Below are positions 19,801-56,990 of a stretch of 64,000 nt of DNA, piece after piece. The stretch comes from Flavobacteriales bacterium (GTDB lineage Bacteria; Bacteroidota; Bacteroidia; Flavobacteriales_C; GCA-002722245), in assembly GCA_002722245.1 (NCBI GenBank), contig PBLA01000003.1, forward strand, positions 23,190 to 87,189, given 5' to 3'. A model generated the notes under the pieces. It had not been told where the DNA came from. It saw only the letters and a program-made list of their open reading frames with translations, and made no database searches. Every line of letters starts with the position of its first letter. The stretch's first letter is position 1. The position numbers and the translations under genes are program-made.

Positions 19801-22431
19801 GCCTGTTCCAACTGACAATGATGTGTCTAAACCAGGACAAATATTAATATCTGACCCTAAATCAAGCGTTGGCAAATTAAACATTACCACGTCTATGGTA
19901 TCTTTTCCTGAACATCCAGTTGAATTTGAAACCGTAACGGTATAATTACCTGATGCTTTTATAACTAATTCTTGCGATGTACCAGAGGGCGTCCAAGTAT
20001 ATGTGGCCCCTTCCACAAAACCAGCATCTATTACTACAGAGTCTCCTTGACAAATTGAGCGATCTTCACCCAAATCAACTTCTATTTCACTGGCTATCGC
20101 CACTTCTAAAGTATCTCTACTAGAGCATCCATATGAACTGGTTACTGTAACATGCAAAACACCACTATTTTCAGTAGTAACAAGAAGCTCTTGCTGATTA
20201 GAGCCATCACTCCATAAATAACTTTCATGATTAGAGCCCGCATTCAATAAAAGAGAACTTCCTCCGCAAATAGTGGTGTCTTTTCCCAAAGATAGTTCCG
20301 GTAATGGGTGAACAGTAAGGTTAACCGTATCCGAGCCAACACATAAATGTACATCTGTGACCTCAACAATATATTCTCCTGAAGTTGACGTTTGAATTGT
20401 TGAAGTTGTTTCTCCACCTTTTATCCAATTATATTGTTCATATTCCCCTGCAATAAAAGTAATTTCTGGTTCGCCATCACAGATAAATTGATCGGGGCCT
20501 ATATTAGGGGTCGGATTTTGATTTATTGTAAGGTCCACCGAATCTCTATTTGAACACCCTATTGCGTCTTCCACCTGAACCCAATAGGTTCCCGTTGAGC
20601 TAGCGATTAATGTGGGCGATGAGGAACCATCGTTCCAGATGTATGAGGTAAATACTCCTGGGTTAAGCAACAGGTCTTTTCCCTGGCACAAAGCTGTATC
20701 ATTCGGCAGACCCATTTCCGGTATTGGATGAACATTGATGTAAATGGAATCATAACATGCGGAACCTCCATCATCTACGGTGTAGAGTAGTTTGTATATT
20801 CCAGGACTTGTTTCTTTACTCGATGCATCGAAAGTAATATCCCCTGCGTGGTTAATCGTAGGTAAATTACCCACTAAAAATGAATCAATGGTCCATAAAC
20901 CTGTTGCACTAGCAGCACTAATCAAACCATCTAATACATAGGTTTGACCCACACATATTTCGGGTTGAAGATCTTCTAAATTGGATGTACAAGATGTACA
21001 ATTATTCACCGTAATCCATATCGTATCATTCACTGAACAATATTCAAATGTTATTTGATGGGTTCCAGGTCCTGCAACGGAAGGATCAAAAATCCCGTTT
21101 GCCCTGTCTGTTATTCCATTTCCTGTATATGCGAAAGGATTTTCCACTGGATTTTCTGCGTCATTTCCAGAACAAATCCATGTTGTACTTAGATCTATCG
21201 CTGGATCAGTGGTGCAATAAGTCCCTACATCTTGAATATCGGGTTCATCACTTGGTGGAATATAGATTGTTGGAAGACCTAAGTGAGACATTCCTGCAGT
21301 ACCCGCAACATTTGAAACTGAAAATGATGTGGCGGTATTTAGATCACCATTCATTTTTTTTAGATATCCTCCTCCTGCTATTCCATGAGAAACATACATT
21401 GACCCGTCATAACCAACTTCAATGGCTGAAAATGCTGAGCTAATTCCTGTTGAAGTCCAGGAATTTTTAATTGTAGTCGCATTCCATGAGGAGATGTCTA
21501 AATAATGAATTGAACTATTTTGCATCGAAACATATACCCTTTTATTGTTTGGAGACCACGTGATATCATAAGGGGAGCCCCAAACACCAGAAACATTCTT
21601 GGCATCATACAACTCACCAGTTGACTTATTAAATTTATAAATCGAGACTATTTTATTTCCATCAGGCCACCAATTTGGGTGTGCTTGAGCTAAATATTCA
21701 CCATCCCATGAATAGGCCATCCCTCCTCGCTCCCTGTTGGAAGTAACCTTAGGTCCTATAGAGGATACAACGGGCGTATTATCAAATCCATCACATTTTA
21801 ACAAATAAGTATAAAATTGCCCTCCTCCAGATGCAAGACAAGTCACCCAGATATCTACACCATTGGAATGGAGTGTTGCTGAAATTGCTTCTGAGGTTCT
21901 AAATGATCCTAATCGAGTTGGTCCAGACAACAGGTTTCCTGCTTTATCAAAAGAAAAAGCATTCATTCCCTTTGTTGCAGCGATCGCATCATCGGTGGTA
22001 ATAACCCAATATCGATCGGAGTCTAGGGGATGCCTTACTGTAATAACCCCTTGTGAGGCTGATCCATTATTAATTCCACCTTCATTACCCGTTAATAATC
22101 CGCTAAATGTTTTTGTAACACCACTACCTGTACCTTTCCATAAAGACCTACCATTCGTATAAAATAATAACTCTCCATTATCGTCGCTTGCTGCTGAAAC
22201 ACCTTCATAGGAAGTAACTGCATTTCCAGGACCTCCAACAGAGGTTACTCCCATGGTTTGCATGTTAATCACAATTCCACTGTATAAATTGGGCGCCATG
22301 AACCAATTGCGTTGACTTGGCCACTCGTAAGGCTGTGAGGAGTTAGAGGCGCACGTTTCTTGAGCTTGTCCATAATTTGAACAAAAAATAAAGGCAATTA
22401 AACCTGTAATGAATTGAACTTTACCAAACAT
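16834..22431 (-). CDS. Giant (1865 aa) cell-surface adhesin-like protein: N-terminal beta-propeller-like region, ~16 tandem ~78-aa Cys-containing repeats, T9SS type-B (gliding-motility-associated) C-terminal domain
   Basis: Signal peptide MFGKVQFITGLIAFIFCSNYGQAQ. Repeats follow the pattern LG.D…C.G….L.AG….Y.W..G……….G.Y.V.V.D..GC…D.V.V. The C-terminus (CINALFVPNAFTPNGDGNNDEFGP…WDGT…) matches the type-B CTD seen in SprB-like proteins. Confidence 0.85.
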   Translation of the reverse strand: MFGKVQFITGLIAFIFCSNYGQAQETCASNSSQPYEWPSQRNWFMAPNLYSGIVINMQTMGVTSVGGPGNAVTSYEGVSAASDDNGELLFYTNGRSLWKGTGSGVTKTFSGLLTGNEGGINNGSASQGVITVRHPLDSDRYWVITTDDAIAATKGMNAFSFDKAGNLLSGPTRLGSFRTSEAISATLHSNGVDIWVTCLASGGGQFYTYLLKCDGFDNTPVVSSIGPKVTSNRERGGMAYSWDGEYLAQAHPNWWPDGNKIVSIYKFNKSTGELYDAKNVSGVWGSPYDITWSPNNKRVYVSMQNSSIHYLDISSWNATTIKNSWTSTGISSAFSAIEVGYDGSMYVSHGIAGGGYLKKMNGDLNTATSFSVSNVAGTAGMSHLGLPTIYIPPSDEPDIQDVGTYCTTDPAIDLSTTWICSGNDAENPVENPFAYTGNGITDRANGIFDPSVAGPGTHQITFEYCSVNDTIWITVNNCTSCTSNLEDLQPEICVGQTYVLDGLISAASATGLWTIDSFLVGNLPTINHAGDITFDASSKETSPGIYKLLYTVDDGGSACYDSIYINVHPIPEMGLPNDTALCQGKDLLLNPGVFTSYIWNDGSSSPTLIASSTGTYWVQVEDAIGCSNRDSVDLTINQNPTPNIGPDQFICDGEPEITFIAGEYEQYNWIKGGETTSTIQTSTSGEYIVEVTDVHLCVGSDTVNLTVHPLPELSLGKDTTICGGSSLLLNAGSNHESYLWSDGSNQQELLVTTENSGVLHVTVTSSYGCSSRDTLEVAIASEIEVDLGEDRSICQGDSVVIDAGFVEGATYTWTPSGTSQELVIKASGNYTVTVSNSTGCSGKDTIDVVMFNLPTLDLGSDINICPGLDTSLSVGTGWQSIQWNDFSSNEELELNVAGTYYVSVTDDNLCSTTDTVLFDFFPSPSLELGEDRTICEGASAYFDAGSGFTSYSWQNQSSLSTYQGTDAEVIWVNIIDENGCTASDTAEILIASSLSVNLIPDTAICDGQAIELSAGYSSENYTINWSNNETTSEIIASETGIYSVSVEDLTGCSGSDSVEIIVNEVPDINLGANQEICEGEEIILNAGSGWTSVVWSTMESGQTILVYEADVYTAVVTNIHGCENTDSIQVIVNARPQPNLGADQTLCSGVSAYFEAGPYSSFTWHDASTASNYSSVKEEDVWVEVVDEKGCKGSDTARIFVRDELLVDLGPDLEICNGDSIELSSGYQGQGNTFLWTTNATTESVLLSDSGIYGLEVTDQNGCKGTDTVELIVNLLPVVTLDLPRSICEGDTLLLDAGNWSSVIWDDGTNDRFLKATASKNYAVTVTNDKGCEGYDEGILTVDSPLSIELGDDLEVCEGKEITISVAEFEFVSYRWHDGSTGEVFITSTPQDISVEATDENGCIAFDTVALTNRMGLDIQLGDDLYFCEGESYEITASGFESGEYEFLWSDQSNASTLLVNETNDYSVIVSNNDGCEGQDTVSIIFYSNPQPVVEDATICAGEKALLKTGEYESYSWNSGETTQEITPAEAGEYTVTVVDENGCVGSVQGELIVHPTPVITEYETQLACIGDTLILSPELPSGSYEWTYDGSSNSSLEVSVSGEYKVLVSNVFGCVDSLGVQAVFKPVPEIELGENRSICFGDTAIVGEHSTDDVLTWNIGLEQDYIIVNQSGSYIATRTNSAGCASKDTIDVYVSPSPIAEATPDTAVCFDEIETLELAVSSYGREQVLWSSGEMDNEIVIDEEGTYSVTLTNEFGCKTTDTVVVTRECINALFVPNAFTPNGDGNNDEFGPKGVNVYDFNFYIFDRWGEQLFHSTNMDIKWDGTHLGRPCQLDVYVWKLSYKAEDQNGYFNVKQKMGTVTLVR
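17120..20740 (-). repeat. Protein-level tandem array (~16 copies x ~234 nt) encoding the Cys-containing Ig/HYR/SprB-like repeats of the giant adhesin
   Basis: Repeated LGxDxxxCxGxxxxLxAG … GCxxxDxxxV units are visible in the translation. Copies are diverged at DNA level rather than identical. Confidence 0.7.
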
Positions 22432-44800: not shown

Positions 44801-47287
44801 TTATTCCTGAAAATAGACTCTTTTCACTCTTGGAGAAATACCCGTTAAAGCCTCATAGGGTATCGTATCCATTAACTTAGCAAATTTTTGGATAGGAAAT
44901 CCTTCACCAAATACAACCACTTCATCACCTTCCTCTGCATCAATATTAGAGATGTCCAGCATACACATATCCATACATACATTACCCACAATAGGAGCTT
45001 TATGACCTTTAATCATCATATATCCCCTTCTCCTTCCTAAACTTCTTCTCAAACCATCTGCATAACCAATTGGAACAGTAGCAATAATAATATCTCGTGT
45101 TGGCATTTCCATTCGTGAATACCCCACAGAGTCATGAGCAGGAATATGCTTAATTTGAGAAATGGTTGTTTTTAACTCTGAAACAGGCTTCAGTTTCGCT
45201 TGATGCTCAGGAAAACTACTTACCCCATACATACCTATCCCCAATCTTACCATGTCAAATTGTGCTTCAGGAAATGCAAGAGCACCCGCTGAATTAACAA
45301 TATGGCGAAAGATTTTTCCGCCTAATATTTCAACAATTTTTTTGCTCATTCGAGCAAATAATTCAATTTGATCATGGGTGAACAATCGATGAATCGGTTC
45401 GTCGGCAGTTGACAAATGACTAAATACACTCTTAACACGAAGAAACTTATGATTTTTAATGTGAATGATTAACTTGTGTAAATCCGTTTCCTCAAAACCC
45501 AATCGGTGCATACCGGTGTCTAACTTTAAATGAATAGGATACCCTTCTGGCTTATTGTAGCCACTGCGCTTTAGTGCTTTAATAAATAAATCAAATACTT
45601 TAAACGAATAGATTTCTGGTTCCAAGTAATTTTGAATCATTAAATCATAAGACTGTTGCTCAGGATTCATAACCATAATAGGCAAAGTAATTCCGGCTCT
45701 CCTCAACTCCACACCCTCATCTGCATAAGCAACTGCTAAATAATCAACACGGTTAAATTGAAGCACATTGGCAATTTCAAAAGAACCACTACCATATGAG
45801 AAGGCTTTTACCATAGCCATTACTTTCGTAGATGCGTTCAATTGGGCTTTAAAATAGTTTAGATTATCAACAATGGCGTTTAAATTAATTTCCAAAACTG
45901 TTTCGTGGACACGCTTTTGAAAAAGTGCACTAATTCGTTCAAATCCAAAAGGCCTAGCTCCCTTTAATAAAATAGTTTCATTTTTAAACTTTGAAAGATC
46001 AATAGATGCAATAAAATCATTTGTTGTAGTAAAAAACTGCGTGTCTTTTGGGAATAAATCTTGTTGGGCGCAGATGTTTTTTCCAATACCGATAATTTTT
46101 TTAACCCCTTTGTTAGCCAACAAGCTAGACACTAACCCATAAAGTTCTTCATCGAGTTTTCCAGATTGTAAAATATCGGATATAATAATCGTTTTATGAA
46201 GATGTTGCTTTTGTTGCTCCATGAAATCTAGAGCGATTTCTAAACTCCCAAAGTCCGAATTGTAATAATCATTAATAATAGAGCAATTGTTTAATCCTTC
46301 TTTGAGCTCTAATCGCATAGCAACAGGAGCTAAGGTCTTCATACGTGAATTAATCCATTCATTATCATATCCTAAATGAAGTAAAACAGCCCAACAACTT
46401 ATGCAGTTTTCAATACTTGCTGTATCATTAAAAGGAATGTGTAACTTTAAAAACTCATTTTTAAACACAGCTTGAACTGTACTATCAACATCCGTTTTAC
46501 TAACTTTCCCAATCATTAAATCTGCAGGGAGTTTTCTACTCCATGTAAAAGTATTAAGGGTTCTATATTTTGCTTTTTTAGTGAGTGAATTGTGAACCGG
46601 AAGAAAATCTCTACAATAAATTAATGATTGTGCATTTTCAAATAATCGCAATTTTTCCTTCGCTTTTTCATCCCAATTTTTAAAATTCTCATCATGGGCT
46701 CCACCAAGGTTTGTTAGCACCCCCAATGTAGGCTGAATCATGAATTCCAATTTCCCCATTTCACCGGGTTGAGAAATCCCCGCCTCGAAAATCCCAAAGT
46801 TGTTTTTCTCCTCTGTTTGCCAAATACTTAACGGTACACCAACTTGAGAATTATAGCTTTTAGGGCTTTTAACAATATTGTATTCCTCCTTTAGCAACTG
46901 ATACAACCATTCTTTCACGATTGTTTTCCCATTACTTCCTGTAATTCCAATCACTGGAAAGTCAAAACGCTTCCGATGATTATGCGCCATCAACTGAAGT
47001 GCAATCAATGTATCTGGCACTTTAATTACCCAAGCATCTTTTAAAAGTGTTAAATTAATCGACTGATCAACTATAAATGTTCTTATTCCTTTTTGATAAA
47101 CCTCCGATAAAAAATCATGTCCATCGTGACGATCACCCTTCACCGCAATAAAAACCGAGCTATCGGTGTTTGCAACTCTCCGGCTATCAATTAAAATAGA
47201 CTGTATAGTTAAATTATTACCTCCTTTCTGGATAACACTTCCATCACAAAGACTAACAAGATCATTTATCACATAGGGTTGACTCAT
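44801..47287 (-). CDS. murF: Bifunctional UDP-MurNAc-tripeptide--D-Ala-D-Ala ligase (MurF) / alanine racemase (Alr) fusion
   Basis: N-terminal Mur ligase P-loop GITGSNGKT. The C-terminal half carries the alanine-racemase PLP motif VMAMVKAFSYGSG and a TIM-barrel-like region. Confidence 0.85.
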   Translation of the reverse strand: MSQPYVINDLVSLCDGSVIQKGGNNLTIQSILIDSRRVANTDSSVFIAVKGDRHDGHDFLSEVYQKGIRTFIVDQSINLTLLKDAWVIKVPDTLIALQLMAHNHRKRFDFPVIGITGSNGKTIVKEWLYQLLKEEYNIVKSPKSYNSQVGVPLSIWQTEEKNNFGIFEAGISQPGEMGKLEFMIQPTLGVLTNLGGAHDENFKNWDEKAKEKLRLFENAQSLIYCRDFLPVHNSLTKKAKYRTLNTFTWSRKLPADLMIGKVSKTDVDSTVQAVFKNEFLKLHIPFNDTASIENCISCWAVLLHLGYDNEWINSRMKTLAPVAMRLELKEGLNNCSIINDYYNSDFGSLEIALDFMEQQKQHLHKTIIISDILQSGKLDEELYGLVSSLLANKGVKKIIGIGKNICAQQDLFPKDTQFFTTTNDFIASIDLSKFKNETILLKGARPFGFERISALFQKRVHETVLEINLNAIVDNLNYFKAQLNASTKVMAMVKAFSYGSGSFEIANVLQFNRVDYLAVAYADEGVELRRAGITLPIMVMNPEQQSYDLMIQNYLEPEIYSFKVFDLFIKALKRSGYNKPEGYPIHLKLDTGMHRLGFEETDLHKLIIHIKNHKFLRVKSVFSHLSTADEPIHRLFTHDQIELFARMSKKIVEILGGKIFRHIVNSAGALAFPEAQFDMVRLGIGMYGVSSFPEHQAKLKPVSELKTTISQIKHIPAHDSVGYSRMEMPTRDIIIATVPIGYADGLRRSLGRRRGYMMIKGHKAPIVGNVCMDMCMLDISNIDAEEGDEVVVFGEGFPIQKFAKLMDTIPYEALTGISPRVKRVYFQE

Positions 47288-47362: not shown

Positions 47363-48796
47363 TTAATGTAAAGACAAATTAATCTGTTTGATTAACCATT
47401 TTTTATCGGCCAGTTGTTTTTCGGATTCAATTTCCTTAGATAACTCACTTACTTTTACTGTTAGTTCCTCCCTTGAATAATGTACTCTTTTATCAAAAAT
47501 TCTAGATAACTTAAGAATATATTTTAAGAATGAAGTGTAGGAATTTTTTTGAATCTCAGCCAAAGAATCCTCTCTTTTTAAATAGGACTTAAAATTTTTC
47601 ACCGAACTTTCGACCGATAAGGTATCTTTCGTTTCCAAATAAATTTTTATTTGCAAAGATCTATAGGCCAATTGGTAGAAAACATCCTTAAAATTAACAA
47701 AAGTTAAGTTTCTTTGAGCCCCTTTATAATCTCCTTGAGCAAATAATATATTTGCCTGATTATAATTGTATATCATAGATTTGTCTTCACTAGGAATATA
47801 TTGAATATATGAATCAAGAAATTTCTCAGCCCATATGAATTCTTTTGCTCTGATGGCAACTTCAATAATATTCTTATAAGACCGATCATGAACGAAAGAA
47901 TTTACCACCAAAAAATCATTATCTACCTGAAATTTCATGATATTAAATAATTCTTGAATATAATCTTCACCATTGTTAACCTTCTTAATACAATGATTAA
48001 TCGAATGTTGGATGAAATTCGTTATTTCCGATCGCGGAGAAACATCTATATTTTCCTTAATTGAATTTAAAAAAACATTAAACTCTTCTCGCGTAAACTC
48101 TTCTGTAAATAAATCTATCAATCTTAAATAAAGATGAAGAGATGGATACTTGCTAAACTCATTTGGCCTATTTTCAATAAATGCTCTTATCTCATCAAAA
48201 AATGTCTTTTTATATTTAGCACTTATTAATCGCTCTCTGACACTCATTTCAATATAAATTTGTAATTTATTGAAGACATAAAAAGCATCTAATGAGTAAG
48301 ACTTGTCTTGAAGTACTTCTGAATATGGTAAGCTAGTATCCTTATTGTACCCTTTATCTATTTCTACATCTGCCAAAAAATCAAATAATAGTTCTTCATT
48401 TGATTTAATCTTGGATTCATCAATTTGTTTCTTTGTTTCCTTAAAGTGCTTCTGAATTGATTTTCCAGAAATTCTCATATTCAATTCTGACACTTTAATA
48501 TATTGTTTCAAATGAGGTCTGTTTTCTGTGTGAACAGTGATTAGATATTGCTCGGCCAACTTATATAAAGCTGACATATCATTATTTAAATTTTTAGATT
48601 TCGTTACTAATTCCAACTTTTCCTTTTTAATCTTTGAAAAATTAGGATGAACCTTTTCCATTACCCTTACAATATCAACAAAGACTTGATTTTTATTATA
48701 ATAAGGGGACGCTATGAAATCAACAAACTTGGACATCTCCTTTGAGGAAAATGTTTCCAAAAGAACACATAATTTACTTCCAGCAATATCTGACAT
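47363..48796 (-). CDS. Hypothetical cytoplasmic alpha-helical (TPR-like) protein, paralog 1 of a divergent pair
   Basis: 477 aa with no signal peptide. Clear paralogy to 49199..50653 (e.g. DRSYKNIIEVAIRAKEFIWAEKFL…MIYNYNQANILFAQGDY…FYQLAYRSLQIKIY versus DRTIKNIIEVAIRAEKYQWAENFL…MIYNYNFANINFGMNN…FYQLSYRILLIKIY). No family recognised. Confidence 0.7.
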   Translation of the reverse strand: MSDIAGSKLCVLLETFSSKEMSKFVDFIASPYYNKNQVFVDIVRVMEKVHPNFSKIKKEKLELVTKSKNLNNDMSALYKLAEQYLITVHTENRPHLKQYIKVSELNMRISGKSIQKHFKETKKQIDESKIKSNEELLFDFLADVEIDKGYNKDTSLPYSEVLQDKSYSLDAFYVFNKLQIYIEMSVRERLISAKYKKTFFDEIRAFIENRPNEFSKYPSLHLYLRLIDLFTEEFTREEFNVFLNSIKENIDVSPRSEITNFIQHSINHCIKKVNNGEDYIQELFNIMKFQVDNDFLVVNSFVHDRSYKNIIEVAIRAKEFIWAEKFLDSYIQYIPSEDKSMIYNYNQANILFAQGDYKGAQRNLTFVNFKDVFYQLAYRSLQIKIYLETKDTLSVESSVKNFKSYLKREDSLAEIQKNSYTSFLKYILKLSRIFDKRVHYSREELTVKVSELSKEIESEKQLADKKWLIKQINLSLH

Positions 48797-48933
48797 CTAC
48801 AATAGCTAAGTATATCAAAATTAAGATTTTAGTTTTAAACCCTGTATTTCTTAAAAAGAAATATATTTAATCAAAGTAACTAATAAATGAGGTTCTTATT
48901 CTCCGTTATAAGATTACAAATTTAACAAGTAAT

Positions 48934-49130
48934 TTACTGCACAAAAACCCATCCGTAAGCAGTTAAATTTCCAGACTGGAATTCTATAAGATATACCCCC
49001 TTCTCGAATTCAGAAAGGTTCAAAACCTGAGTTGGAGGTTATATAATAATTATGCCAATTTATTTTTTCCAAGATTATAATAATTTCAGGGTCTCCAATA
49101 AATAACATTTGTGTATCTCCTATCACAATC
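48934..49130 (-). pseudogene. Orphan remnant of a T9SS type-A C-terminal sorting domain (3' gene fragment, stop-interrupted)
   Basis: Reverse-strand translation gives PPTQVLNLSEFEKGVYLIEFQSGNLTAYGWVFVQ*, preceded in-frame by a TAA. About 80-85% nucleotide identity to the real 3' end of the FG-GAP cargo gene (54468-54570) and to the fragment at 56772-56880. Confidence 0.55.
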
Positions 49131-49198
49131 ATTTCTTACAAAAAGTATATCAAAATCGAGTAATAAAAGATTTTTTTACATTTTGCTAATTTTATAAG

Positions 49199-50653
49199 AT
49201 GATTGAAAAAGAAATATCCAAAAGTAAATTAGGTGTTTTGCTGAAGGCTTTATCTAAAAAGGAATATAACTCTTTTATTAAATACCTAGATTCCCCATTA
49301 TTTAACAAAAAAAAAGAATTTCACGAAGCAGCTAAGTTTTTATTCAAATTTCACCCCTCGTTTGAAAATAAGGACTTATCGAAAGAATTATTAAAAAAAC
49401 ATCTGAATAAGAGTACAAAAAAACTAAATAATATAAACTCATTAATGAATGGACTCTTGAGGCATGGAGAGGAGTTTCTTGTTCATAATCATGTATCAGA
49501 GTCACAAGGACTAAAGGATTTAATCTTACTATCAGAATTTAATAACAGATCGATTAAAAAAGGTTTTGAAAATCATGTTAAAAGCTCTGATCATAGAATT
49601 GAAAAAATATCTGTTCAATCATTTGATCAAATTCTCAATTCATTCCTTATTGAGCACGAAATCGATGTAGCTTTTTCAAAAGATCAGAGTCTTCCATTTG
49701 ATCAAGCTATCATTTCTAAAACTACACAATTAGATGTATTCTTTTTTTATTGCAAACTAAAAACCTATTGCGAAATAATTTCGCGTTCTCAATTTTTAAA
49801 GGTCAAATATCCTACTGATAATTTTGAAAAAACATTAGAATGGCTAAAAAACTTTCCCGAACTAATAAAAAATCCTTCTATAAAAATATACTTTGGTCTA
49901 GTTCAATTACTGAAAAACTTCGAAAATGATGAGATCTATTCGAAATATATAATCACCCTAAAAGAAGAATACAATAACTTCAATAAAGATGAATGCATAA
50001 ACCTTTTTCAAACCGTATCAAATCATTGTATTAGAAGAATAAACAACGGTTCAAGTCATTACTTAAAAGAACTGTTTAATATTTATGAATTTCAAGCAGA
50101 AAAAGACCTGCTTGTAAAGGAAGGTTTTCTACACGACAGAACAATCAAAAACATTATAGAAGTTGCTATCCGAGCTGAAAAATATCAGTGGGCTGAAAAT
50201 TTTCTTGTGCAACATATTGATTTTGTTGACAAAGATCAAAAAGAGATGATTTACAACTATAATTTTGCAAACATAAATTTTGGTATGAACAATTTAAAAA
50301 CGGCAAAAAAACATTTAGTGTTTGTTAATATAAAAGACCCCTTTTACCAACTATCTTACAGAATCTTACTAATTAAGATATATTATTCAATTAATGACTT
50401 TGAAGCTCTATCTAGTACTATTTCAAATTTCAAAGCATTTTTTAATAGAGAAAAAAACATCTCAGAAATTCAAAAAGCTATTTTCTCAAACTTACTTTTT
50501 TTCATACACAAGTTGGTTTTGTTAAAGGAGAAAAAAAATCATCTTGAAACCAAAAAATTCTCAATTAAAAAAGAAGAGCTTAAGGCCCAAATTAATAGTG
50601 AAAACAAGATAGCCGATAGAGGGTGGTTACTAAATGAATTTGAAAAAGTATAA
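49199..50653 (+). CDS. Hypothetical cytoplasmic alpha-helical (TPR-like) protein, paralog 2 of a divergent pair
   Basis: 484 aa with no signal peptide. N-terminal SKLGVLLKALSKKEYNSFIKYLDSPLFNKKKEF parallels SKLCVLLETFSSKEMSKFVDFIASPYYNKNQVF of paralog 1. The C-terminal helical repeats are also conserved between the two. Confidence 0.7.
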   Translation: MIEKEISKSKLGVLLKALSKKEYNSFIKYLDSPLFNKKKEFHEAAKFLFKFHPSFENKDLSKELLKKHLNKSTKKLNNINSLMNGLLRHGEEFLVHNHVSESQGLKDLILLSEFNNRSIKKGFENHVKSSDHRIEKISVQSFDQILNSFLIEHEIDVAFSKDQSLPFDQAIISKTTQLDVFFFYCKLKTYCEIISRSQFLKVKYPTDNFEKTLEWLKNFPELIKNPSIKIYFGLVQLLKNFENDEIYSKYIITLKEEYNNFNKDECINLFQTVSNHCIRRINNGSSHYLKELFNIYEFQAEKDLLVKEGFLHDRTIKNIIEVAIRAEKYQWAENFLVQHIDFVDKDQKEMIYNYNFANINFGMNNLKTAKKHLVFVNIKDPFYQLSYRILLIKIYYSINDFEALSSTISNFKAFFNREKNISEIQKAIFSNLLFFIHKLVLLKEKKNHLETKKFSIKKEELKAQINSENKIADRGWLLNEFEKV

Positions 50654-50795: not shown

Positions 50796-50830
50796 AAAAA
50801 GCCGAGGTAAAATTGGCCTCGGCTTTTATT
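50796..50830. terminator. Bidirectional rho-independent terminator between convergent genes
   Basis: AAAAAAGCCGAGGtaaaattgGCCTCGGCTTTTATT. Confidence 0.65.
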
Positions 50831-50844
50831 AAGTTTTTCAAATT

Positions 50845-53800
50845 TTATTTTTTAATAAAGGAAATTGTCTCAACTTTAGCATCTCCAGAAACAACTATTG
50901 AATAATAACCTGATACTAGGCCAGAAACATCAATTTTTGATTTCCCTATTACCATATCCATCTCTTGAGATAAAACTATTTGTCCATGCGCATTAAACAC
51001 CTGAAGCTTCATTCCCTCTGATTGCTCATTATCCGAAAATAAAGACACATTTAACTCGTTTTCAGCAGGATTTGGATAGACTTCTAACATACTGCTCTCA
51101 ATAGACTTAACAGCCGTTCCTTCTTCATATACTGGATCTAAAATTTCAGCATATGAAATGACTTCTGTGTCAAACGATCTCGGAGTAAACATAGGATTAT
51201 TCTCATCGTCATCACACGTCAAGTTAGTATTTAGTTGCATTTGCTGATTAAACCCGTTTAATTGCGCAGCACACGAGGCAGTTGAATGATACTGGAAATT
51301 TTGAGTGATGTTTACCGTATTAAACGTAAAAGTATTTACTCCAAAGTTATTAGCCATGTTCATGGTTCCGCTAATACAAAATACATCAATTGCTGTGTTT
51401 GAATTACTCCAGAAGGTATTTAAACCTGGCGAAATTGCGGTTCCAAAATCAATGTTTTGTGAATTATTTACATATAAACCAGCATTTGAATAGTTATAAA
51501 GGAAGTTATTTCTGACAGAACCTCCTGAATTTCTGAATAAATATATTGGATTGCTAGAATCGTATATACAGTTTGAATGAATGTTACACCCATTTCCATC
51601 TCTAATAAACATTCCTACTCCGCTTCTAGCTGTTCTTCCGTTAAATTTGTTCATATCAATCTTATTGCACATAACATTCAAATCACTTCTTCTAGAAAAA
51701 ATCCCATAAAGCTCATTGTTTAACAAATCATTACTTGTAATTTGACCTGTACTATTAATTGTACTGATTCCTGTATTAAATCCAGAAATTTCATTTTCTT
51801 TTACTTTAAAGTTATTACTATTCCATAATGAAACAGCAGGAATTCGAACTGTATTACCTCTGTTAAGTATGCCGTTTGATATGGTATTATTTAACATCCA
51901 AACTTGGTTTCCACCACGAATTGAAATCTGAATATCAAAATTAAATGCTCCATTATTGGATAAACCGTTACTTACAGAAATAGTATTTGCTTCAATGTTT
52001 AAAGGATAAACTGATCGTCTACCAAGATTAGCCTCTATGGATGTTGAATTTCCAGAAAAATTATTTTGAGAAATTGTAGCTCCAGAAGCATTCATTTTAA
52101 TTCCGTGAAATTGTATTGATGTATTTGAGGAATATGATACAAAGTCGTTTTGACTAATACCTCCTGAGATCTCTGAACGAGAAATGTTAACTCCACTTGG
52201 TTCATTGTTGTTGATTGATACTTGACGTCCACAATCCTCATATAAAGGAAAGTCTGTATCTACCTTAAACTCATTCCCCGTAATACTTCTTGCAAAGTCT
52301 GTTCTGGAATCGACATTTACACCATACAAACAATTCTCGAATAAGTTGTTTGTTACCGAACCTTCTGTACTTTGAAAATCTAACGCCATAGTTGCATTGA
52401 TAAACGTACTGGAATTTACATCAACAGTATTTACGTTGTTAAAAACCAAACCATGCCAGGTATTAACCAAGTCGCATGGTCTAAAAACAGAGTTGTTTGC
52501 TTTTAACGTTGCACCGTTGTTAAATACAATTGCGGCACATTTTCCAAACACAACATCAACGTTTGTAATGTCTAATTCAGCAGCATCCACTGTAACAGTT
52601 ATATTGTCTCCGATCAAAATTTTACCCTCCCAAACTGTACCACTGGATATTATTTGATCCGCCAAAATCTGCTGTAATTCATTAATATTTGCTGATTGCA
52701 ACAAGCAGCAATTATTTGATTCTTCAACCTCAATAGTAGCAATATCCTGACATCCATTAATATATGTTACTACAGATTGATACGAGCCCGTCTCATCAAT
52801 TTCTAACGTATTACCACCAATTTCAATGAGTTGTCCATCTAAAAACCACTCATATGTTTGCACTAAATGGTTTATATTAACGTCAAGCCCTGAAATTATG
52901 GCATGAGCTTCTACCGCTAATTCAGCTGTTTCTCCGGGACAAATTGACTCCTCTGTACTCGTTAATATTGTATTCAATGCAGATTCACTAGTAAAATTAG
53001 GAAGACCAAAACCTCGTGTTGCAGTATTTGTATTTTGAAAAACATTTGGATTATAATTTGGATTAGCGCTACCCGTATTAGTTATTCTACCAACTGTTTG
53101 AGAGGCAGCGGCTACCCATCCCGCATTACTAACATGATAAATATTTCCATCCACACCAGTTTGAAGTCCACCGCCAAGATCGTTCCAACCGGATCCTTGA
53201 CCTGACCACCATATTCGGCTAATAGAATTGTTATTGTTTAGGTCAATTTGGTACAACTCACTCGGGCCATAACACCCATAGTATAAATATTGTCCATTTA
53301 TAGAGTATTCCAAATCAACTACGGCTGAAGTTGCTCCAGGGAAAGTTGTTGCTCCAATTGTATTACCAACTCCATTAAATGTACCTGTTTGCGTATTAAA
53401 TGTCTCCATCATAATAATGCTTGATCTAGGAGCTGCTGTGAAAACCGACCATGCTACTTCTACATTTATATTATCATTTAGTCTTGTTGCAGAATATGTA
53501 GGGTTTAAAACCGCATTATTAGGAACGTTTCCTATGTTAAACTGATTAGAATATTGTATTCCGTTTGAACTAATTTTATATACTGCAAAGGTTGATGCAT
53601 TATCAACAACTTTCGTAATTAACCAGTATTCAAAAGGGTTTGTAAGATTTGGAATGGCTATAATACCTTCTTGTACATTAACTCCAGATAAAGGATTATT
53701 TAATGTTGGTAAAGCCCCATTAAATTGAGAAAAAACACCTGTTGCAGCATCATAAACGTGAACTAATAAATCTCTACCGTTACCATTATTTGTTGGATCC

Positions 53801-54195
53801 GAAAAAATATAATATTGATCACTACAATTAATAACAGGAACAACTGTAACTGCTGTTGACGAGGAAGGATCTGCTCCTAAAGGTTCAATATTTGGCGTAT
53901 TAAGATTTGGATCAACCCTTTGATGGTTTGAGTTATACAAATTAATCCCATCTGTGTAAAATAATAAGTCACCAGTATTTGGGTCGGATACAACTGTAAT
54001 ACCTTCAGTACTATTTAAAGCACCAGCATTCGGACCAGCTCCTACTAATGCTCCGATATTACCAGTATTATCAATTGAAAATTCAGAGGGGTCAGCACCG
54101 CTTCCGAATATCCAGTTCGTTCGCTCTAATTGGGCTTTACCTGTTAACCAGGAGAGTAATATTAAAGCTGCGATAAAAGTGTATTGTTTTTTCAT
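50845..54195 (-). CDS. Secreted 1116-aa protein with N-terminal beta-propeller-like region, right-handed parallel beta-helix (PbH1-like) repeats and T9SS type-A CTD
   Basis: Signal peptide MKKQYTFIAALILLSWLTGKAQ. Asn/Gly-rich beta-helix-like repeats (…NNTISNGILNRGNTVRI…NNFKVKENEISGFNTGIS…). C-terminal VYPNPAENELNVS…GYYSIVVSGDAKVETISFIKK. Confidence 0.75.
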   Translation of the reverse strand: MKKQYTFIAALILLSWLTGKAQLERTNWIFGSGADPSEFSIDNTGNIGALVGAGPNAGALNSTEGITVVSDPNTGDLLFYTDGINLYNSNHQRVDPNLNTPNIEPLGADPSSSTAVTVVPVINCSDQYYIFSDPTNNGNGRDLLVHVYDAATGVFSQFNGALPTLNNPLSGVNVQEGIIAIPNLTNPFEYWLITKVVDNASTFAVYKISSNGIQYSNQFNIGNVPNNAVLNPTYSATRLNDNINVEVAWSVFTAAPRSSIIMMETFNTQTGTFNGVGNTIGATTFPGATSAVVDLEYSINGQYLYYGCYGPSELYQIDLNNNNSISRIWWSGQGSGWNDLGGGLQTGVDGNIYHVSNAGWVAAASQTVGRITNTGSANPNYNPNVFQNTNTATRGFGLPNFTSESALNTILTSTEESICPGETAELAVEAHAIISGLDVNINHLVQTYEWFLDGQLIEIGGNTLEIDETGSYQSVVTYINGCQDIATIEVEESNNCCLLQSANINELQQILADQIISSGTVWEGKILIGDNITVTVDAAELDITNVDVVFGKCAAIVFNNGATLKANNSVFRPCDLVNTWHGLVFNNVNTVDVNSSTFINATMALDFQSTEGSVTNNLFENCLYGVNVDSRTDFARSITGNEFKVDTDFPLYEDCGRQVSINNNEPSGVNISRSEISGGISQNDFVSYSSNTSIQFHGIKMNASGATISQNNFSGNSTSIEANLGRRSVYPLNIEANTISVSNGLSNNGAFNFDIQISIRGGNQVWMLNNTISNGILNRGNTVRIPAVSLWNSNNFKVKENEISGFNTGISTINSTGQITSNDLLNNELYGIFSRRSDLNVMCNKIDMNKFNGRTARSGVGMFIRDGNGCNIHSNCIYDSSNPIYLFRNSGGSVRNNFLYNYSNAGLYVNNSQNIDFGTAISPGLNTFWSNSNTAIDVFCISGTMNMANNFGVNTFTFNTVNITQNFQYHSTASCAAQLNGFNQQMQLNTNLTCDDDENNPMFTPRSFDTEVISYAEILDPVYEEGTAVKSIESSMLEVYPNPAENELNVSLFSDNEQSEGMKLQVFNAHGQIVLSQEMDMVIGKSKIDVSGLVSGYYSIVVSGDAKVETISFIKK

Positions 54196-54467
54196 AACCT
54201 TCTTTTATTTTAAATTTTAATTGTAAAACAGGACTCAAAAGTAGATAGGTAGAGCCTTAAAAGTTTCGGTATTTTTTTTACATAATTTTAGAAAACCGAA
54301 CAAAAAAAATACGTAAATACCTGTAAAACAAGTACTTATCTGTGTTATAAGTTTAAAAAAAGAATCAAATTGAATGTGATAAAAAACCTAGTATTTAAGG
54401 TTTAACACTTTGAATTAATAAAAAGGGATTAGGAATTATTAGAAATAACTTTATTAACCTATAGTCT

Positions 54468-56738
54468 TTAATTAACAAAAACCCTTTCGTAAGTGATTAA
54501 GTTTCCGGACTGAAATTCTATGACATACACTCCTTTCTCAAAACTAGAAAGATTCAACACTTCATGTTGAGCAGGAGTAAGCAACTGATTAATTACTCTT
54601 CCCGACAAGTCCATAATCCTAATTTTATCAAGTTGCAACTTAGAATCTATATTAAATACCCCTGAGTTAGGATTAGGATATACCTTTAATCCTTTTTCAA
54701 GCAAATTTATATTGTGATCTTCTTTATTTAAAACAACAATAGGGTCTCCATAAACAACATTTGGTAATATCGTATCACCTTCATAGCTTACAATAATTAG
54801 GTCCGTTAATCTAATATCAAAATCTTTTACAATCTCTCCTAAGTTATCTGGAATAACGATTATACCTGTGGCTAAGTATCCCTGACCAGTTCTATTAATT
54901 TGGTCTGTTCTTGACATCCCAATATCAATTCCGTCGGTTAGTGGAAAACCATCAGCAATCATATCAACATTTTTTGTACCTAACCAACTGCCATTAAAAT
55001 TGGATGAGTTATCACTTCCAAAAACTTCTTCAAGGTCATGCTGCCATTTCATACTCAAACCATATACATTTTCAGCAGGTGTCACCGAGTCCCCTAAATA
55101 AATTTGGTAAACAATAGAGTCTGAACTTGACACTGTATCTGTTTTTGATGAAATGTAAAGAGGTGGACCAAAAGGATTTGTAGGTACGTTTTTATCCACT
55201 TTAAAAGAAACTTGCGAATAGTTTTGACGAACAGCTAATACATCATCAAAATCTATTTTTCCATCTCCATCTGTATCCGCATGTTTCAAATCAACTTCAT
55301 AATGTTTATTCCCCCAATCATCGCAGGTTTGATCTGTCCATGAGATAAGAGGTAATATTCTTCTTATACCATCAGAAACTCCAATACCTGCACCAATATT
55401 AATATAATCAGAGCTATTAACTTTACCATCATTATTTGCATCGCCAGGCCAAACACAATCATCCTCTATACATTTTCTGGGTTTCAATGTTATAAAATGA
55501 ATTGCTCCTCCTAAATATGCAGAGTCAGACCTCCATGATTCTCCAACAGCTACTTCAGGATAGCCGTCTGAATTTATATCTCCTACATGATATATCAGAC
55601 TGCCAAACTGTTGCTCTGGAAGATAATCCAATCCAGAAACCGTATTTCTATTTATTAACTCATACGCGGTAACATCACCTGATGAATCTAAAAAAAACAC
55701 ATAGGCCTCTCCATAATTATCAGGTGAAAATCCTTTATATGCAGTAACTAAAAGCTCATTTAGCCCATCAAAATTCAAATCAGGAAGAGATCTTAAAACT
55801 CTTCCAAAAGCAGAGCCGCTAACACTTAACCCACCAACAACAGGGTGAGAATTATCAATTCGTTTTGATGATTTCACCGAACCATCTGTATTTAATAAAA
55901 CAATCCAAAATCGATCTCCTTTTGTACCAGCGACTATGTCAGTCATTCCGTTCCCATCAATATCGCCTATATTTGCTAATCCATCACCAAATCCAGCATT
56001 TGGATATTTAATACCGGGAAAGTCCTCAAATGTTGGTAAAATCTTTTTGTAACCCTTTACTGTACCATTGGAATTTAAGTACAAAATATAGATTACTCCC
56101 ATATCAGCACCCACATCATGTGCTTCAAAAGCAGAGACAAAAACATCGGTATTTCCGTCATTGTCTAAGTCTCCTGCGGCAGAAACTTCCATTCCAAATT
56201 TATCGCCTAATGTAATATCTAAAATTGAGTTGTTTTGAGATATCTTAACATCATCCTTAACCGTTCCATCAGTATTCAAAAACAAGATATAAACCGCACC
56301 AGAATATAATCCAAAACCATTATCGTCCTGAGGCGCACCTACGACGACATCCATATTCCCATCTCCATCTAAATCACCTAATGTGTCAACTGATATTCCA
56401 AATGCAGCCTGCCTATGGATCAAACCTGAAAAACCACCTTTTCCTTCCCCAATAAATTGATAGGATTTAAATGTTCCATCAGAATTCATGAACGCAACAA
56501 CTAACTCACCCCGAGTAGTATGACCTAAGCCTGGTCCGGCAATAACCAAATCATTTATCCCATCCTTATCTAAATCACCTATTACTGTTGCTCCATGCAA
56601 ATAGGCGCTGTCCTCTTTAGGAATAAGTAACTCTTCGTTATTCAATTGAAAAGTTTTTAATAATTCAAAACTAAGTTGCTGACTGAATACAAAATTGGAA
56701 AACAGTATTAAAACTAATGATATATGTAATTTGTTCAT
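54468..56738 (-). CDS. Secreted FG-GAP (integrin-alpha-like beta-propeller) repeat protein with dockerin/EF-hand-like Ca-binding loops and T9SS type-A CTD
   Basis: Repeated GDLDKDGINDLVIAG / GDLDGDGNMDVVVGA / GDLDNDGNTDVFVSA / GDIDGNGMTDIVAG / GDINSDGYPEVAVGE motifs; DANNDGKVNSSD and DTDGDGKIDFDD loops. C-terminal KVYPNPNSGVFNI…GVYVIEFQSGNLITYERVFVN. Confidence 0.75.
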   Translation of the reverse strand: MNKLHISLVLILFSNFVFSQQLSFELLKTFQLNNEELLIPKEDSAYLHGATVIGDLDKDGINDLVIAGPGLGHTTRGELVVAFMNSDGTFKSYQFIGEGKGGFSGLIHRQAAFGISVDTLGDLDGDGNMDVVVGAPQDDNGFGLYSGAVYILFLNTDGTVKDDVKISQNNSILDITLGDKFGMEVSAAGDLDNDGNTDVFVSAFEAHDVGADMGVIYILYLNSNGTVKGYKKILPTFEDFPGIKYPNAGFGDGLANIGDIDGNGMTDIVAGTKGDRFWIVLLNTDGSVKSSKRIDNSHPVVGGLSVSGSAFGRVLRSLPDLNFDGLNELLVTAYKGFSPDNYGEAYVFFLDSSGDVTAYELINRNTVSGLDYLPEQQFGSLIYHVGDINSDGYPEVAVGESWRSDSAYLGGAIHFITLKPRKCIEDDCVWPGDANNDGKVNSSDYINIGAGIGVSDGIRRILPLISWTDQTCDDWGNKHYEVDLKHADTDGDGKIDFDDVLAVRQNYSQVSFKVDKNVPTNPFGPPLYISSKTDTVSSSDSIVYQIYLGDSVTPAENVYGLSMKWQHDLEEVFGSDNSSNFNGSWLGTKNVDMIADGFPLTDGIDIGMSRTDQINRTGQGYLATGIIVIPDNLGEIVKDFDIRLTDLIIVSYEGDTILPNVVYGDPIVVLNKEDHNINLLEKGLKVYPNPNSGVFNIDSKLQLDKIRIMDLSGRVINQLLTPAQHEVLNLSSFEKGVYVIEFQSGNLITYERVFVN

Positions 56739-56771: not shown

Positions 56772-56990
56772 TTATTTAACAAAAACCCTTTCGTAAGCAG
56801 TTAAATTCCCGGACTGGAATTCTTAATAATATACCCCTTTCTCAAAACTTTATAATTCAAATCCTGCCCAATTAGTAAAGTGGGTAAAACATGATTAAAA
56901 GAAAAACCAACATTATGTAATTCCTGTAATTAGTAACTGAATTTATTCAACATTTTTTATGCCTTATGAAAGAAACATTAATAAAAATTA
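56772..56990 (-). pseudogene. Orphan, degenerated remnant of a T9SS type-A CTD (3' gene fragment with in-frame stop)
   Basis: Reverse-strand translation gives …DLNYKVLRKGVYY*EFQSGNLTAYERVFVK*. The first ~100 nt are ~80-85% identical to 54477-54570 and 48941-49037. Further upstream, similarity to the CTD-coding region of the FG-GAP gene is decayed but recognisable. Confidence 0.55.

Follow-up and report, generated by a model that had tools for sequence, protein, structure and literature searches.

The window, i.e., the whole stretch of 64,000 nucleotides that was analyzed, carries two head-to-head genes coding for the proteins that we call A and B, separated by a short region with the traces of a third gene (Table 1). 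The original prediction had placed a divergent pair of open reading frames (ORFs) here, and both proved intact and full length; neither A nor B is disrupted. It had also described the pair as paralogues with 30 to 35% identity. They are indeed true paralogues over their full length, but their end-to-end alignment gives a slightly higher identity than claimed (175 of 477 positions, 37%; E 4e-105, BLASTP). Their surroundings are rich in T9SS cargo genes, with six of type A and one of type B among about 41 ORFs of the window.

Table 1. Positions of the genes and sequence elements around A and B in the window.
Feature	Position	Strand	Description
murF-alr fusion gene, then tatD		−	3′ neighbors of A, on the same strand
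Paralogue A	47363..48796	−	Intact ORF, 477 aa; A-type member of the unnamed family of cargo-associated helical proteins
Putative −7 box of A, TAATTTTG	about 22 nt upstream of A start	−	Fits the Bacteroidota −7 consensus TAnnTTTG
Shared A-B region	48797..49198	.	402 bp; both putative promoters and a decayed cargo fragment
14-nt exact direct repeat AAGTATATCAAAAT, copy 1	48808..48821	+	Coincides in part with the putative −7 box of A, which is on the opposite strand
Cargo pseudogene fragment	48933..49147	−	FG-GAP-type cargo gene reduced to its 3′ end with the T9SS type-A CTD tail; internal deletion
14-nt exact direct repeat AAGTATATCAAAAT, copy 2	49143..49156	+	43 to 56 nt upstream of the B start codon
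Paralogue B	49199..50653	+	Intact ORF, 484 aa; B-type subfamily
GC-rich hairpin, 12-bp stem	50797..50827	.	Between the convergent 3′ ends of B and a cargo gene; terminator-like
T9SS type-A CTD cargo gene	50845..54195	−	1116 aa; convergent with B; Por_Secre_tail 42 bits
FG-GAP T9SS cargo gene, intact	54468..56738	−	756 aa; FG-GAP and Por_Secre_tail
Second decayed CTD-end fragment	56772..56907	−	Between the start of the FG-GAP cargo gene and sdhB; 80% identical to 48941-49029

Proteins A and B and their family

The N-terminal motif that had been read from the two translations is present as SKLcVLLetfSsKEmskFvdfiaSPyyNK in A and SKLgVLLkalSkKEynsFikyldSPlfNK in B, and so are the C-terminal motifs KNIIEVAIRA, WAE.FL, MIYNYN.ANI and FYQL.YR.L.IKIY. 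Both N termini are hydrophilic (MSDIAGSKL... in A, MIEKEISKSKL... in B). The highest mean hydropathy over 19 residues on the Kyte-Doolittle scale is 0.66 for A and 1.48 for B, in agreement with the predicted lack of transmembrane and signal segments. The reported lack of a P-loop and of a helix-turn-helix (HTH) also held, as A and B gave no such match, nor any other domain match, in Pfam, NCBIfam and PADLOC. Both genes are under purifying selection. B has a dN/dS of 0.11 relative to its counterpart at the related locus L092, and the dN of A is 0.118 relative to L093, with dS saturated. B has close relatives, P0001-P0003, with 90 to 96% identity.

A and B had been said to belong to no assignable family. 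No curated model matches them, but according to profile searches they are members of a very large unnamed family from Bacteroidota and related FCB bacteria. The search retrieved 11,498 cluster representatives at E ≤ 1e-3 and 5,850 at E ≤ 1e-30, about 475 aa long and all unannotated; the top 150 are all full length (454 to 511 aa). The profile for the genome scan was built from members sharing NYCI[KR]KIN. The family HMM detects both A and B at a cut-off of E ≤ 1e-10, the profile match is full length in both (~475 aa), and near-identical relatives reach an E of 3.1e-137 for the B type (L092) and of 5.1e-120 for the A type (L093). Both proteins fit the family motifs SP[YF]FN loop, N.C....N.G, KNI, W.e.F and Y.YN.A, and the invariant residues K10, S32, N36, N275, G284, N318, W331, F335, R417 and W476 are present. 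Asn, Arg, Lys, Asp and aromatic residues predominate at the conserved positions of the family. Judging from their sequences, the family proteins look cytoplasmic and non-enzymatic.

AF2 modeling predicts B to be a two-domain all-alpha protein (full-length pLDDT 83.1). Residues 1 to 160 make up an N-domain of 8 helices (pLDDT 88.6 and pTM 0.78 when modeled alone), and a low-confidence linker (160-173) leads to a TPR-like solenoid of residues 178 to 484. The earlier description of helical cytoplasmic proteins with a TPR-like C-terminal part is supported. In Foldseek searches against the PDB, the full B model found only generic solenoids, with many TPR proteins at a probability of about 1.0 (best E 6.9e-3, TM ≤0.35). 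The A3 family profile matches consensus TPR designs at E 1.9e-4 over one repeat-sized stretch (profile positions 332-372). The Pfam TPR threshold is not reached: the TPR_2 score of A is 12.4 bits (E 0.19; cutoff 27), B matches none of the Pfam TPR models, and the best homologue match has an E of 0.0015, below cutoff. Foldseek matched the N-domain model to no PDB entry at an E below 1.9 (8.8 for PrgX), and the predicted fold appears to have no solved relative. Among paralogues, the N-domain is less conserved (27%) than the C-domain (40%), which is the reverse of most transcription-factor families.

The profile searches suggested in the original prediction found no characterized family in Pfam, NCBIfam, PADLOC or PDB sequences. 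Scans of A, B and 40 homologues against Pfam, NCBIfam and PADLOC gave nothing above threshold, and PDB sequence searches with single proteins and profiles returned nothing beyond the weak consensus-TPR matches. No DNA-binding domain or fold was found for family proteins in Pfam, NCBIfam or the N-domain Foldseek search. We rejected several specific identities. A sigma factor with a C-terminal TPR extension (e.g., ECF42) would carry Sigma70_r2 or Sigma70_r4, neither of which matched in Pfam even at E ≤ 10, and no sigma factor is among the N-domain Foldseek matches. Neither Trans_reg_C nor BTAD, the domains of SARP/BTAD regulators, was detected in A, B or homologues. The T9SS components PorX, PorY, SigP, PorW/SprE and PorE are excluded by the lack of NCBIfam and Pfam matches and of a hydrophobic segment. 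RRNPP regulators were rejected on two counts: no XRE-type HTH was seen in Pfam, NCBIfam or the N-domain fold comparison, and the neighboring genes code for T9SS cargos with a signal peptide and Por_Secre_tail rather than for small propeptides. A defense system was also considered and rejected. A homologue search by word index with the N-domain as query returned one protein and no domain fusions, and a literature search found no description of the family or of the gene pair.

The intergenic region and the origin of the A-B arrangement

The spacer of about 400 bp with a remnant of a T9SS CTD gene that had been noted between A and B is real. The closest intact relative of the remnant is cargo gene 54468..56738. 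By DNA comparison, positions 48933-49029 are 77% identical to 54467-54560, the 3′ end of that gene, and positions 49088-49147 are 78% identical to 54741-54799 inside it. The former segment is also 80% identical to 56779-56866. In addition, the remnant shares 79% identity with the CTD end of the intact cargo gene in L092, and a 29-aa ORF within it (48934..49023) gives a sub-threshold match to Por_Secre_tail (E 0.016). The second decayed fragment matches CTD ends from L092 and L101 as well. The 14-nt direct repeat has no further copies in the window (blastn), and no Rfam element was found in its 44- to 55-kb portion.

The original prediction treated the divergent A-B pair as a unit, which the gene orders of relatives do not support. 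In L092, whose B is 95% identical, an intact T9SS cargo gene of 1003 aa lies head-to-head with B, which has no A next to it. Conversely, an A-type gene occurs without B in L101, L094 and L097, with a cargo gene upstream on the same strand, and L095 likewise has an A-type gene but no B. A orthologues keep the murF-alr/tatD synteny in L004/L094, L095 and L101, and the A-type subfamily has its cargo gene on the same strand, either upstream or downstream. In L101, the region orthologous to cargo gene 54468..56738 is directly upstream of the A-type gene. The B-type orthologue of L006 shows the same convergent cargo arrangement as in the window, the downstream gene ending in a CTD. Because of the gene orders in L092, L101, L094 and L097, the A-B arrangement seems to be a side effect of the decay of a cargo gene and not a functional divergent pair. 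Between the paralogues there would once have been one FG-GAP-type cargo gene, which faced B head-to-head and A tail-to-head and of which a decayed piece of about 215 bp would be left. A and B would thus now face each other because the cargo gene between them decayed.

Alternatively, A and B might be obligate partners in a heteromer, their genes being regulated together from a divergent promoter that they share, with the paralogous pair as the functional unit. The same head-to-head order in the close relative L093, the integrity of both genes and the purifying selection on them, and the 14-nt exact repeat upstream of each are consistent with such a pair. We nevertheless regard it as quite improbable, since B adjoins an intact cargo gene without A in L092, A-type genes occur without B in L101, L094, L095 and L097, none of 77 family loci besides the window has two family genes head-to-head, and what separates A from B is the remains of a gene, not DNA dedicated to regulation.

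Family genes are coupled to T9SS cargo genes

Across the 77 loci, the conserved partner of a family gene is not a paralogue but a T9SS cargo gene. Position −1 is occupied by a type-A-CTD cargo gene in 63 loci (82%), 62 of which have it in divergent orientation, whereas the other positions from −5 to +5 hold a cargo gene in 2 to 15% of loci (about 9% overall). This corresponds to an odds ratio of 44 for position −1, with a nominal p of 1.7e-40 for loci that are phylogenetically related. The canonical arrangement is found in 28 of 37 independent lineages (50% identity grouping), with a median gap of 268 bp and a shared divergent region of 130 to 540 bp, and precomputed Pfam annotation reveals the same pattern in L001, L003, L005, L009, L011, L104 and L106. 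All 10 partner cargos sampled score above the gathering threshold for Por_Secre_tail. The partners range from 165 to 2897 aa and have ordinary Sec signal peptides, and the linkage spans Chitinophagales, Saprospiraceae, Sphingobacteriales and Ignavibacteria. When two family proteins are at least 50% identical, the passengers of their cargos are homologous in 98 to 99% of pairs, a proportion that falls to at most 9% below 40% identity. These data show a physical coupling of family genes to type-A-CTD cargo genes, in the canonical case head-to-head, and the inheritance of family gene and cargo gene as a unit. The T9SS link of the original prediction was therefore right, but it is far stronger and more specific than had been thought. 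A and B themselves lack the intact divergent cargo gene directly upstream, with only the decayed fragment in its place; the B orthologue in L092 has one.

The family gene might merely hitch-hike in fast-evolving islands of cargo genes, with no functional link to its neighbor. The window is indeed rich in cargo genes, and the region from sdhB to murF-alr is dynamic, with cargo fragments and differing gene content in L092, L093 and L101. However, the enrichment is specific for position and orientation, it holds in 28 of the 37 lineages and across the four taxonomic groups named above, and cognate pairs are co-inherited, which makes hitch-hiking the least probable of the explanations that we weighed.

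The passengers of partner cargos are diverse and adhesin-like, and their CTDs belong to a relatively uniform subclass. The mean CTD local alignment score is 64.5 to 71.9 between partners, 49.7 between partner and unpaired cargos and 43.9 between unpaired cargos. Many cargos in the same genomes have no family partner, as is the case for four other CTD cargo genes of the window, which have no family gene nearby. The homogeneity of the partner CTDs, the only feature common to all partners, brings in the main rival to the regulatory function proposed below, namely a cytoplasmic chaperone or targeting factor dedicated to one cargo, whose conserved TPR-like groove would hold an extended stretch of the new cargo protein, either its signal peptide or its CTD tail, before Sec export, in the manner of the TPR class II chaperones of type III secretion. 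The C-domain is TPR-like according to both the profile match to consensus TPRs and Foldseek, it is better conserved than the N-domain and has conserved Asn, Arg and Lys in its repeat region, and the same-strand order of cargo and A-type genes is compatible with co-expression. Conversely, 62 of the 63 canonical pairs are divergent and not operonic, the cargos carry ordinary Sec signal peptides, the T9SS recognizes the CTD after export, a protein of 475 aa is far larger than known secretion chaperones, and many cargos do without a partner. The CTD subclass signal could also stem from duplication of whole pair modules. We consider a chaperone unlikely on balance.

Proposed function and comparison with known systems

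Exact direct repeats of at least 10 nt are present in 43% of the shared intergenic regions, compared with 15% of divergent controls and 21% of all controls, a modest enrichment among phylogenetically related loci. Orthologue groups have their own conserved repeated words, such as TCATTGCT in two to three copies, AATCGTGGAAT in two copies 100 nt apart and TTTATCGG in two copies about 97 nt apart. Some groups have one copy of the word downstream of the predicted −7 box of the family gene and ahead of its start codon. No family-wide operator word emerged from 6-mer enrichment, in which only the −7 box of the cargo promoter was enriched. In two lineages that share a TATCGG repeat, the N-domains are 30.5% identical, for a background of 25.3 ± 4.6%.

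Our tentative best guess is that the family proteins are cargo-gene-specific regulators. Each would be a dedicated local regulator of the adjoining cargo gene and probably also of its own gene. The variable N-domain would provide locus specificity by binding the locus-specific repeats in the shared intergenic DNA, and the conserved TPR-like domain would be the binding site for a common signal or partner, either a peptide or a protein. Conserved divergent gene pairs reportedly consist in most cases of a regulator and its target (Korbel et al. 2004, Nat Biotechnol 22:911). The position- and orientation-specific linkage, the co-inheritance, the locus-specific repeats and the 14-nt repeat upstream of both A and B argue for this function. 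The lack of a detectable DNA-binding domain, the lower conservation of the N-domain relative to the C-domain, the lack of a family-wide operator word in the 6-mer analysis and the modest repeat enrichment count against it, as do the cargo genes of the window without an adjacent family gene. The same-strand cargo genes of the A-type subfamily would also suit a co-expressed protein partner.

The location of some repeat copies in the leader of the family gene would also fit an RNA-binding helical-repeat protein acting post-transcriptionally on the adjoining cargo mRNA or on its own leader, and the best whole-protein Foldseek matches include IFIT2/IFIT5, the Rrp5 HAT domain, Ski3 and a designed PPR protein (E 0.007-0.05). 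Matches of this kind are what alpha-solenoids give in general (TM ≤0.35), not one of them is significant, and no Rfam element was found in the region; we regard RNA binding as improbable. The family may be an unrecognized class of cargo-dedicated cytoplasmic T9SS partner comprising thousands of pairs, its new N-terminal fold serving as a DNA-binding or specificity module or handling a CTD subclass before export, a broader proposal that we find possible but somewhat doubtful.

Much of the Bacteroidota cell surface consists of T9SS cargos, among them adhesins, gliding-motility proteins and enzymes. PorXY-SigP control the T9SS machinery genes; to our knowledge, almost nothing is known apart from this system about the control or the pre-export handling of individual cargo genes. 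With more than 11,000 clusters, no annotation and about 80% head-to-head cargo linkage, the family represents a concrete, testable candidate for the missing layer of cargo control. It also supplies a rule by which thousands of "hypothetical proteins" can be annotated in Chitinophagales, Saprospiraceae and their relatives from the sea and from soil. If the broader proposal is true, cargo expression or export would be controlled individually from the cytoplasm, by a mechanism without a described counterpart.

The known systems closest to the family each differ from it in some respects. Like the RRNPP proteins NprR, PlcR, Rap and PrgX, the family proteins are cytoplasmic, of similar size, endowed with a C-terminal TPR-like superhelix and encoded beside an exported product, and NprR and Rap are among the Foldseek matches, although not significantly (E ≥0.02, TM about 0.25). 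In contrast, they have no XRE-type HTH, their neighbor is a T9SS cargo of 165 to 2897 aa, and they come from another phylum. With divergent local regulators, e.g., of the LysR type, they share the head-to-head position relative to a presumed target over a common region of 130 to 540 bp, the locus-specific repeated words and the ratio of one regulator gene per target gene. There is no similarity in sequence or fold, however, the family N-domain being the less conserved domain and not a winged HTH. The type III TPR class II chaperones SycD, PcrH and IpgC are likewise TPR-like and encoded beside the secreted substrate to which they are dedicated, but those are proteins of about 160 aa, co-operonic with their substrates and serving a one-step secretion system, whereas the family proteins have about 475 aa and an extra N-domain, their genes are divergent and their cargo crosses the inner membrane by Sec. 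Finally, the T9SS proteins PorX/PorY/SigP, PorW/SprE and PorE have the link to this secretion system in common with the family, and PorW/SprE and PorE contain TPR motifs (PMC5053529, PMC8754138). Those components are a response regulator, a kinase, an ECF sigma factor or periplasmic and outer-membrane lipoproteins, whereas A and B have no receiver or sigma domain, no lipoprotein signal and no sequence similarity to the curated models.

Family and predicted fold of A and B

The original prediction described A and B as divergent paralogous ORFs flanking the remnant of a gene for a T9SS (type IX secretion system) cargo, and these observations were confirmed in every detail. Both ORFs match the six-frame ORF list exactly, and every motif quoted for them occurs in both sequences. 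They align end to end by BLASTP with 175/477 identities (37%, E = 4e-105) and are, by sequence, unquestionably paralogues. Both proteins lack a hydrophobic segment, with top 19-residue Kyte-Doolittle means of 0.66 (A) and 1.48 (B). Purifying selection acts on both genes (for B, dN/dS 0.11 against a 95% identical metagenomic orthologue; for A, dN 0.118 with saturated dS against its orthologue).

Searches with A and B against Pfam, NCBIfam, PADLOC, and PDB sequences returned noise only, and relatives numbered just 11 in a word-indexed search. When 1.84 billion cluster representatives were searched exhaustively with an HMMER profile, 11,498 proteins scored E ≤ 1e-3, and 5,850 of them E ≤ 1e-30; the top 150 matches are 454 to 511 aa long, and all aligned over essentially their full length. 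A and B are not orphans, and their family is very large. None of about 300 members checked carries a Pfam domain or a name beyond "hypothetical protein," and NCBIfam holds no model for the family. In species-representative genomes, family loci occur in Chitinophagales, in Saprospiraceae, Lewinellaceae, and Phaeodactylibacter, in Sphingobacteriales, and in unclassified Bacteroidia; a further member comes from an Ignavibacteria MAG, and several MAGs have at least two copies.

AlphaFold2 modeled B (13-sequence alignment) as an all-alpha protein of 24 helices (pLDDT 83.1), with a low-confidence linker at residues 160 to 173 between N- and C-terminal blocks. The N-domain alone (residues 1 to 168, 31 sequences) was modeled confidently, with 8 helices (pLDDT 88.6, pTM 0.78). 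The predictions show a two-domain helical fold, and the family proteins are cytoplasmic in character. In Foldseek searches, the full B model matched generic TPR-type solenoids only (IFIT, Ski3, NprR, Rap, and APC subunits; best E 6.9e-3, TM ≤ 0.35), and a profile of mainstream members matched designed consensus TPR proteins over one repeat-sized stretch (E 1.9e-4). On these two results, TPR-like is a fair label for the C-domain, although no Pfam TPR model scored above threshold for the family. The N-domain model gave a best E of 1.9 against 350,542 PDB chains, with no recognizable helix-turn-helix, sigma, or other DNA-binding fold. Asn, Arg, Lys, Asp, and aromatics make up most of the conserved residues of the family, and no constellation of them looks catalytic. 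Mean identity among paralogues is lower in the N-domain (27%) than in the C-domain (40%).

Linkage of family genes to T9SS cargo genes

In the precomputed annotation of the first distant homologues, five loci (L001, L003, L005, L009, and L011) have a gene with Por_Secre_tail, the Pfam model of the cargo C-terminal domain (CTD), directly upstream on the opposite strand. We took 80 genome loci, called their ORFs, and tabulated the neighbors by position with a family HMM and a CTD HMM built from ten Pfam-confirmed tails. Of 77 loci, 63 (82%) have a gene for a type-A CTD protein at the adjoining position -1; all but one of these partner cargo genes (62) are divergent from the family gene, a head-to-head layout that we call canonical. 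Each remaining position from -5 to +5 holds a CTD gene in 2 to 15% of loci (odds ratio for position -1, 44; nominal p 1.7e-40). After collapse at 50% identity, 28 of 37 lineages are canonical. Of three further loci with independent Pfam annotation, two show the canonical layout, and in the third the cargo gene is 2.4 kb distant. The linkage is specific in both position and orientation; mere hitch-hiking of the family gene is the least probable explanation that we considered.

The partner cargos are 165 to 2897 aa long, all have a Sec-type signal peptide, and Por_Secre_tail exceeded its gathering score in 10/10 sampled. Their passengers are diverse (PKD, SprB repeats, Big_9/Cadherin_5, FG-GAP/LamG, BNR-like, or none recognizable). 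One small lineage of 165 to 169 aa, at position -1 in nine loci (L047, L049, L054, L055, L058, L060, L067, L075, and L078), consists of a signal peptide, about 70 residues with a conserved PEIDNLSG motif, and the CTD. Two loci, L011 and L046, have two family genes within 10 kb; the two in L011 are each paired with a divergent cargo gene of their own, so that pair modules can cluster. Genes for a LytS-type histidine kinase (PF06580) and/or a LytTR response regulator lie within a few kilobases of the pair in three loci, which could be chance, such systems being common in Bacteroidota.

Cognate pairs are inherited as units: cargo passengers are homologous in 98 to 99% of pairs at family-protein identities of at least 50%, in 44% at 40 to 50%, and in at most 9% below 40%. 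The mean local alignment score of CTDs is 64.5 to 71.9 between partner cargos, 49.7 between partner and unpaired cargos, and 43.9 among unpaired cargos from the same loci. In 54/62 cases, the CTD closest to a partner CTD, orthologues aside, belongs to another partner cargo. Either duplication of whole pair modules or a relationship at the protein level could account for this likeness. The distinct CTD subclass, like the TPR-like groove, would suit a cytoplasmic protein that serves its cognate pre-cargo as chaperone or targeting factor, which is the chief rival to the regulator proposed below; divergent transcription and Sec-dependent cargo export argue against such a role, and we consider it unlikely.

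The shared spacers have a median of 268 bp (range, 127 to 543 bp), and alignments within orthologue groups revealed conserved, group-specific repeated words. Spacers of the Lewinellaceae/Phaeodactylibacter group have two or three copies of TCATTGCT, and those of the L020/L027/L030/L032 group have two copies of AATCGTGGAAT at a distance of 100 nt. In the small-cargo group, TTTATCGG occurs twice, about 97 nt apart, and a conserved TTGAnAATCAA palindrome lies between two TATCGG words. Exact direct repeats of at least 10 nt are present in 43% of 61 shared spacers, compared with 15% of 71 divergent control regions and 21% of 250 controls taken from the same loci, an enrichment that is suggestive but modest, the loci being non-independent. 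The only family-wide word in the shared spacers is ACAAAT, the -7 box of the cargo promoter (TAnnTTTG) on the other strand.

A conserved head-to-head pair with a private spacer and locus-specific repeats is a classical sign of a dedicated local regulator and its target, and conserved divergent pairs are reportedly of this kind as a rule (Korbel et al. 2004). Because the family shows all three features, we tentatively propose, at somewhat below an even chance, that its proteins are cargo-gene-specific regulators. Locus specificity would come from the variable N-domain, and a common signal or partner would be bound by the conserved TPR-like domain. The regulator role has genuine weaknesses: no DNA-binding fold was detected, and the two domains differ in conservation in the opposite sense to those of most transcription-factor families. 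An RNA-binding role has a slim chance.

History of the A-B spacer

The 402-bp spacer holds, on its minus strand, a decayed T9SS cargo fragment with two segments matching an intact FG-GAP cargo gene of the window. A 29-codon ORF of this remnant, MNLSEFEKGVYLIEFQSGNLTAYGWVFVQ, closely resembles the intact cargo tail LNLSSFEKGVYVIEFQSGNLITYERVFVN and matched Por_Secre_tail below threshold. An exact 14-nt direct repeat, AAGTATATCAAAAT, has one copy just upstream of A and one just upstream of B, with no third copy in the 64-kb window; it may be an operator or a duplication relic.

Coordinates of features in the window and in comparison loci
Feature	Sequence	Position	Strand	Length	Remark
A	window	47363..48796	-	477 aa	six-frame ORF list
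B	window	49199..50653	+	484 aa	six-frame ORF list
Remnant, CTD end	window	48933-49029	-		77% identity with final 94 nt of FG-GAP cargo gene
Remnant, inner part	window	49088-49147	-		78% identity with stretch ~180 nt deeper in FG-GAP cargo gene
14-nt repeat	window	48808-48821; 49143-49156		14 nt
FG-GAP cargo gene	window	54468..56738			intact
Second CTD-end fragment	window	56772-56907			between FG-GAP cargo gene start and sdhB; 80% identical to remnant
MurF-like Mur ligase-alanine racemase fusion	window	44801-47287	-	828 aa	directly downstream of A, then tatD
Further cargo ORFs	window	5537-7345; 7375-10170; 10278-11564; 13405-14583; 16834-22431			four type-A CTD, one 1865-aa type-B (CHU_C)
ORF without Pfam match	window	2671-4779	-	702 aa	4-nt overlap with end of next
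ORF	window	4776-5345	-	189 aa
Family genes	L011	3843-5270; 8767-10155
Family genes	L046	2517-3962; 10007-11458
LytS and/or LytTR genes	L001	4130-5902
LytS and/or LytTR genes	L003	797-3823
LytS and/or LytTR genes	L006	2-2177
FG-GAP cargo orthologue	L101	6841-9135			83% DNA identity to window 54472-56713; three ORFs (146, 219, 248 aa)

A metagenome scan with the A/B subfamily gave 12 loci. In L092, a B gene (95% identical) lies head-to-head with an intact, Pfam-confirmed 1003-aa FG-GAP/LamG cargo gene, 310 bp apart, with no adjoining A. L101, which keeps the synteny of the window between sdhA/sdhB and murF-alr/tatD, lacks B; its A-type gene has the FG-GAP cargo region immediately upstream, on the same strand. 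The A-B head-to-head layout recurs in L093 (DNA identity, 93% for B and 76% for A). A cargo gene precedes A on the same strand in L094 and L097, and A is followed by a large cargo gene in L096 and L098; in L006 (48% identical to B), a CTD gene lies downstream, convergent with B, as in the window.

On the simplest reading of these sequences, an FG-GAP-type cargo gene once stood between A and B, head-to-head with B in the canonical layout and tail-to-head with A, and would since have decayed to a fragment of about 215 bp (48933-49147). Given the comparison loci and the decayed cargo, the divergent A-B pair looks like an evolutionary by-product and not the unit of function. An obligate A-B heteromer is unlikely, its chance being about as slim as that of an RNA-binding role. 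As an instance of the family pattern, the pair in the window is atypical and partly degenerate, yet it is what exposed that pattern.

The second CTD-end fragment shows that cargo-gene turnover in this island is fast, and together the two fragments show repeated duplication and decay of cargo-gene 3' ends. The split cargo orthologue of L101 is either a pseudogene or a metagenomic assembly error. The MurF-alanine racemase fusion and its synteny are kept in L004, L095, and L101. About 1 ORF in 6 of the window encodes a T9SS cargo, and none of the five further cargo ORFs adjoins a family gene. The overlapping 702- and 189-aa ORFs resemble a sigma/anti-sigma pair in arrangement.

Comparison with known systems

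No account of the family or the family-cargo gene pair turned up in full-text literature searches. It is less likely than not, though not remote, that the family amounts to a cytoplasmic layer of control over T9SS cargo that is new in kind. Functionally, divergently transcribed one-component regulators come nearest, with RRNPP regulators and type III TPR chaperones as looser parallels, but the family departs from each in defining sequence and fold features. The family is best described as a TPR-containing local partner or regulator whose N-domain and target class are unprecedented.
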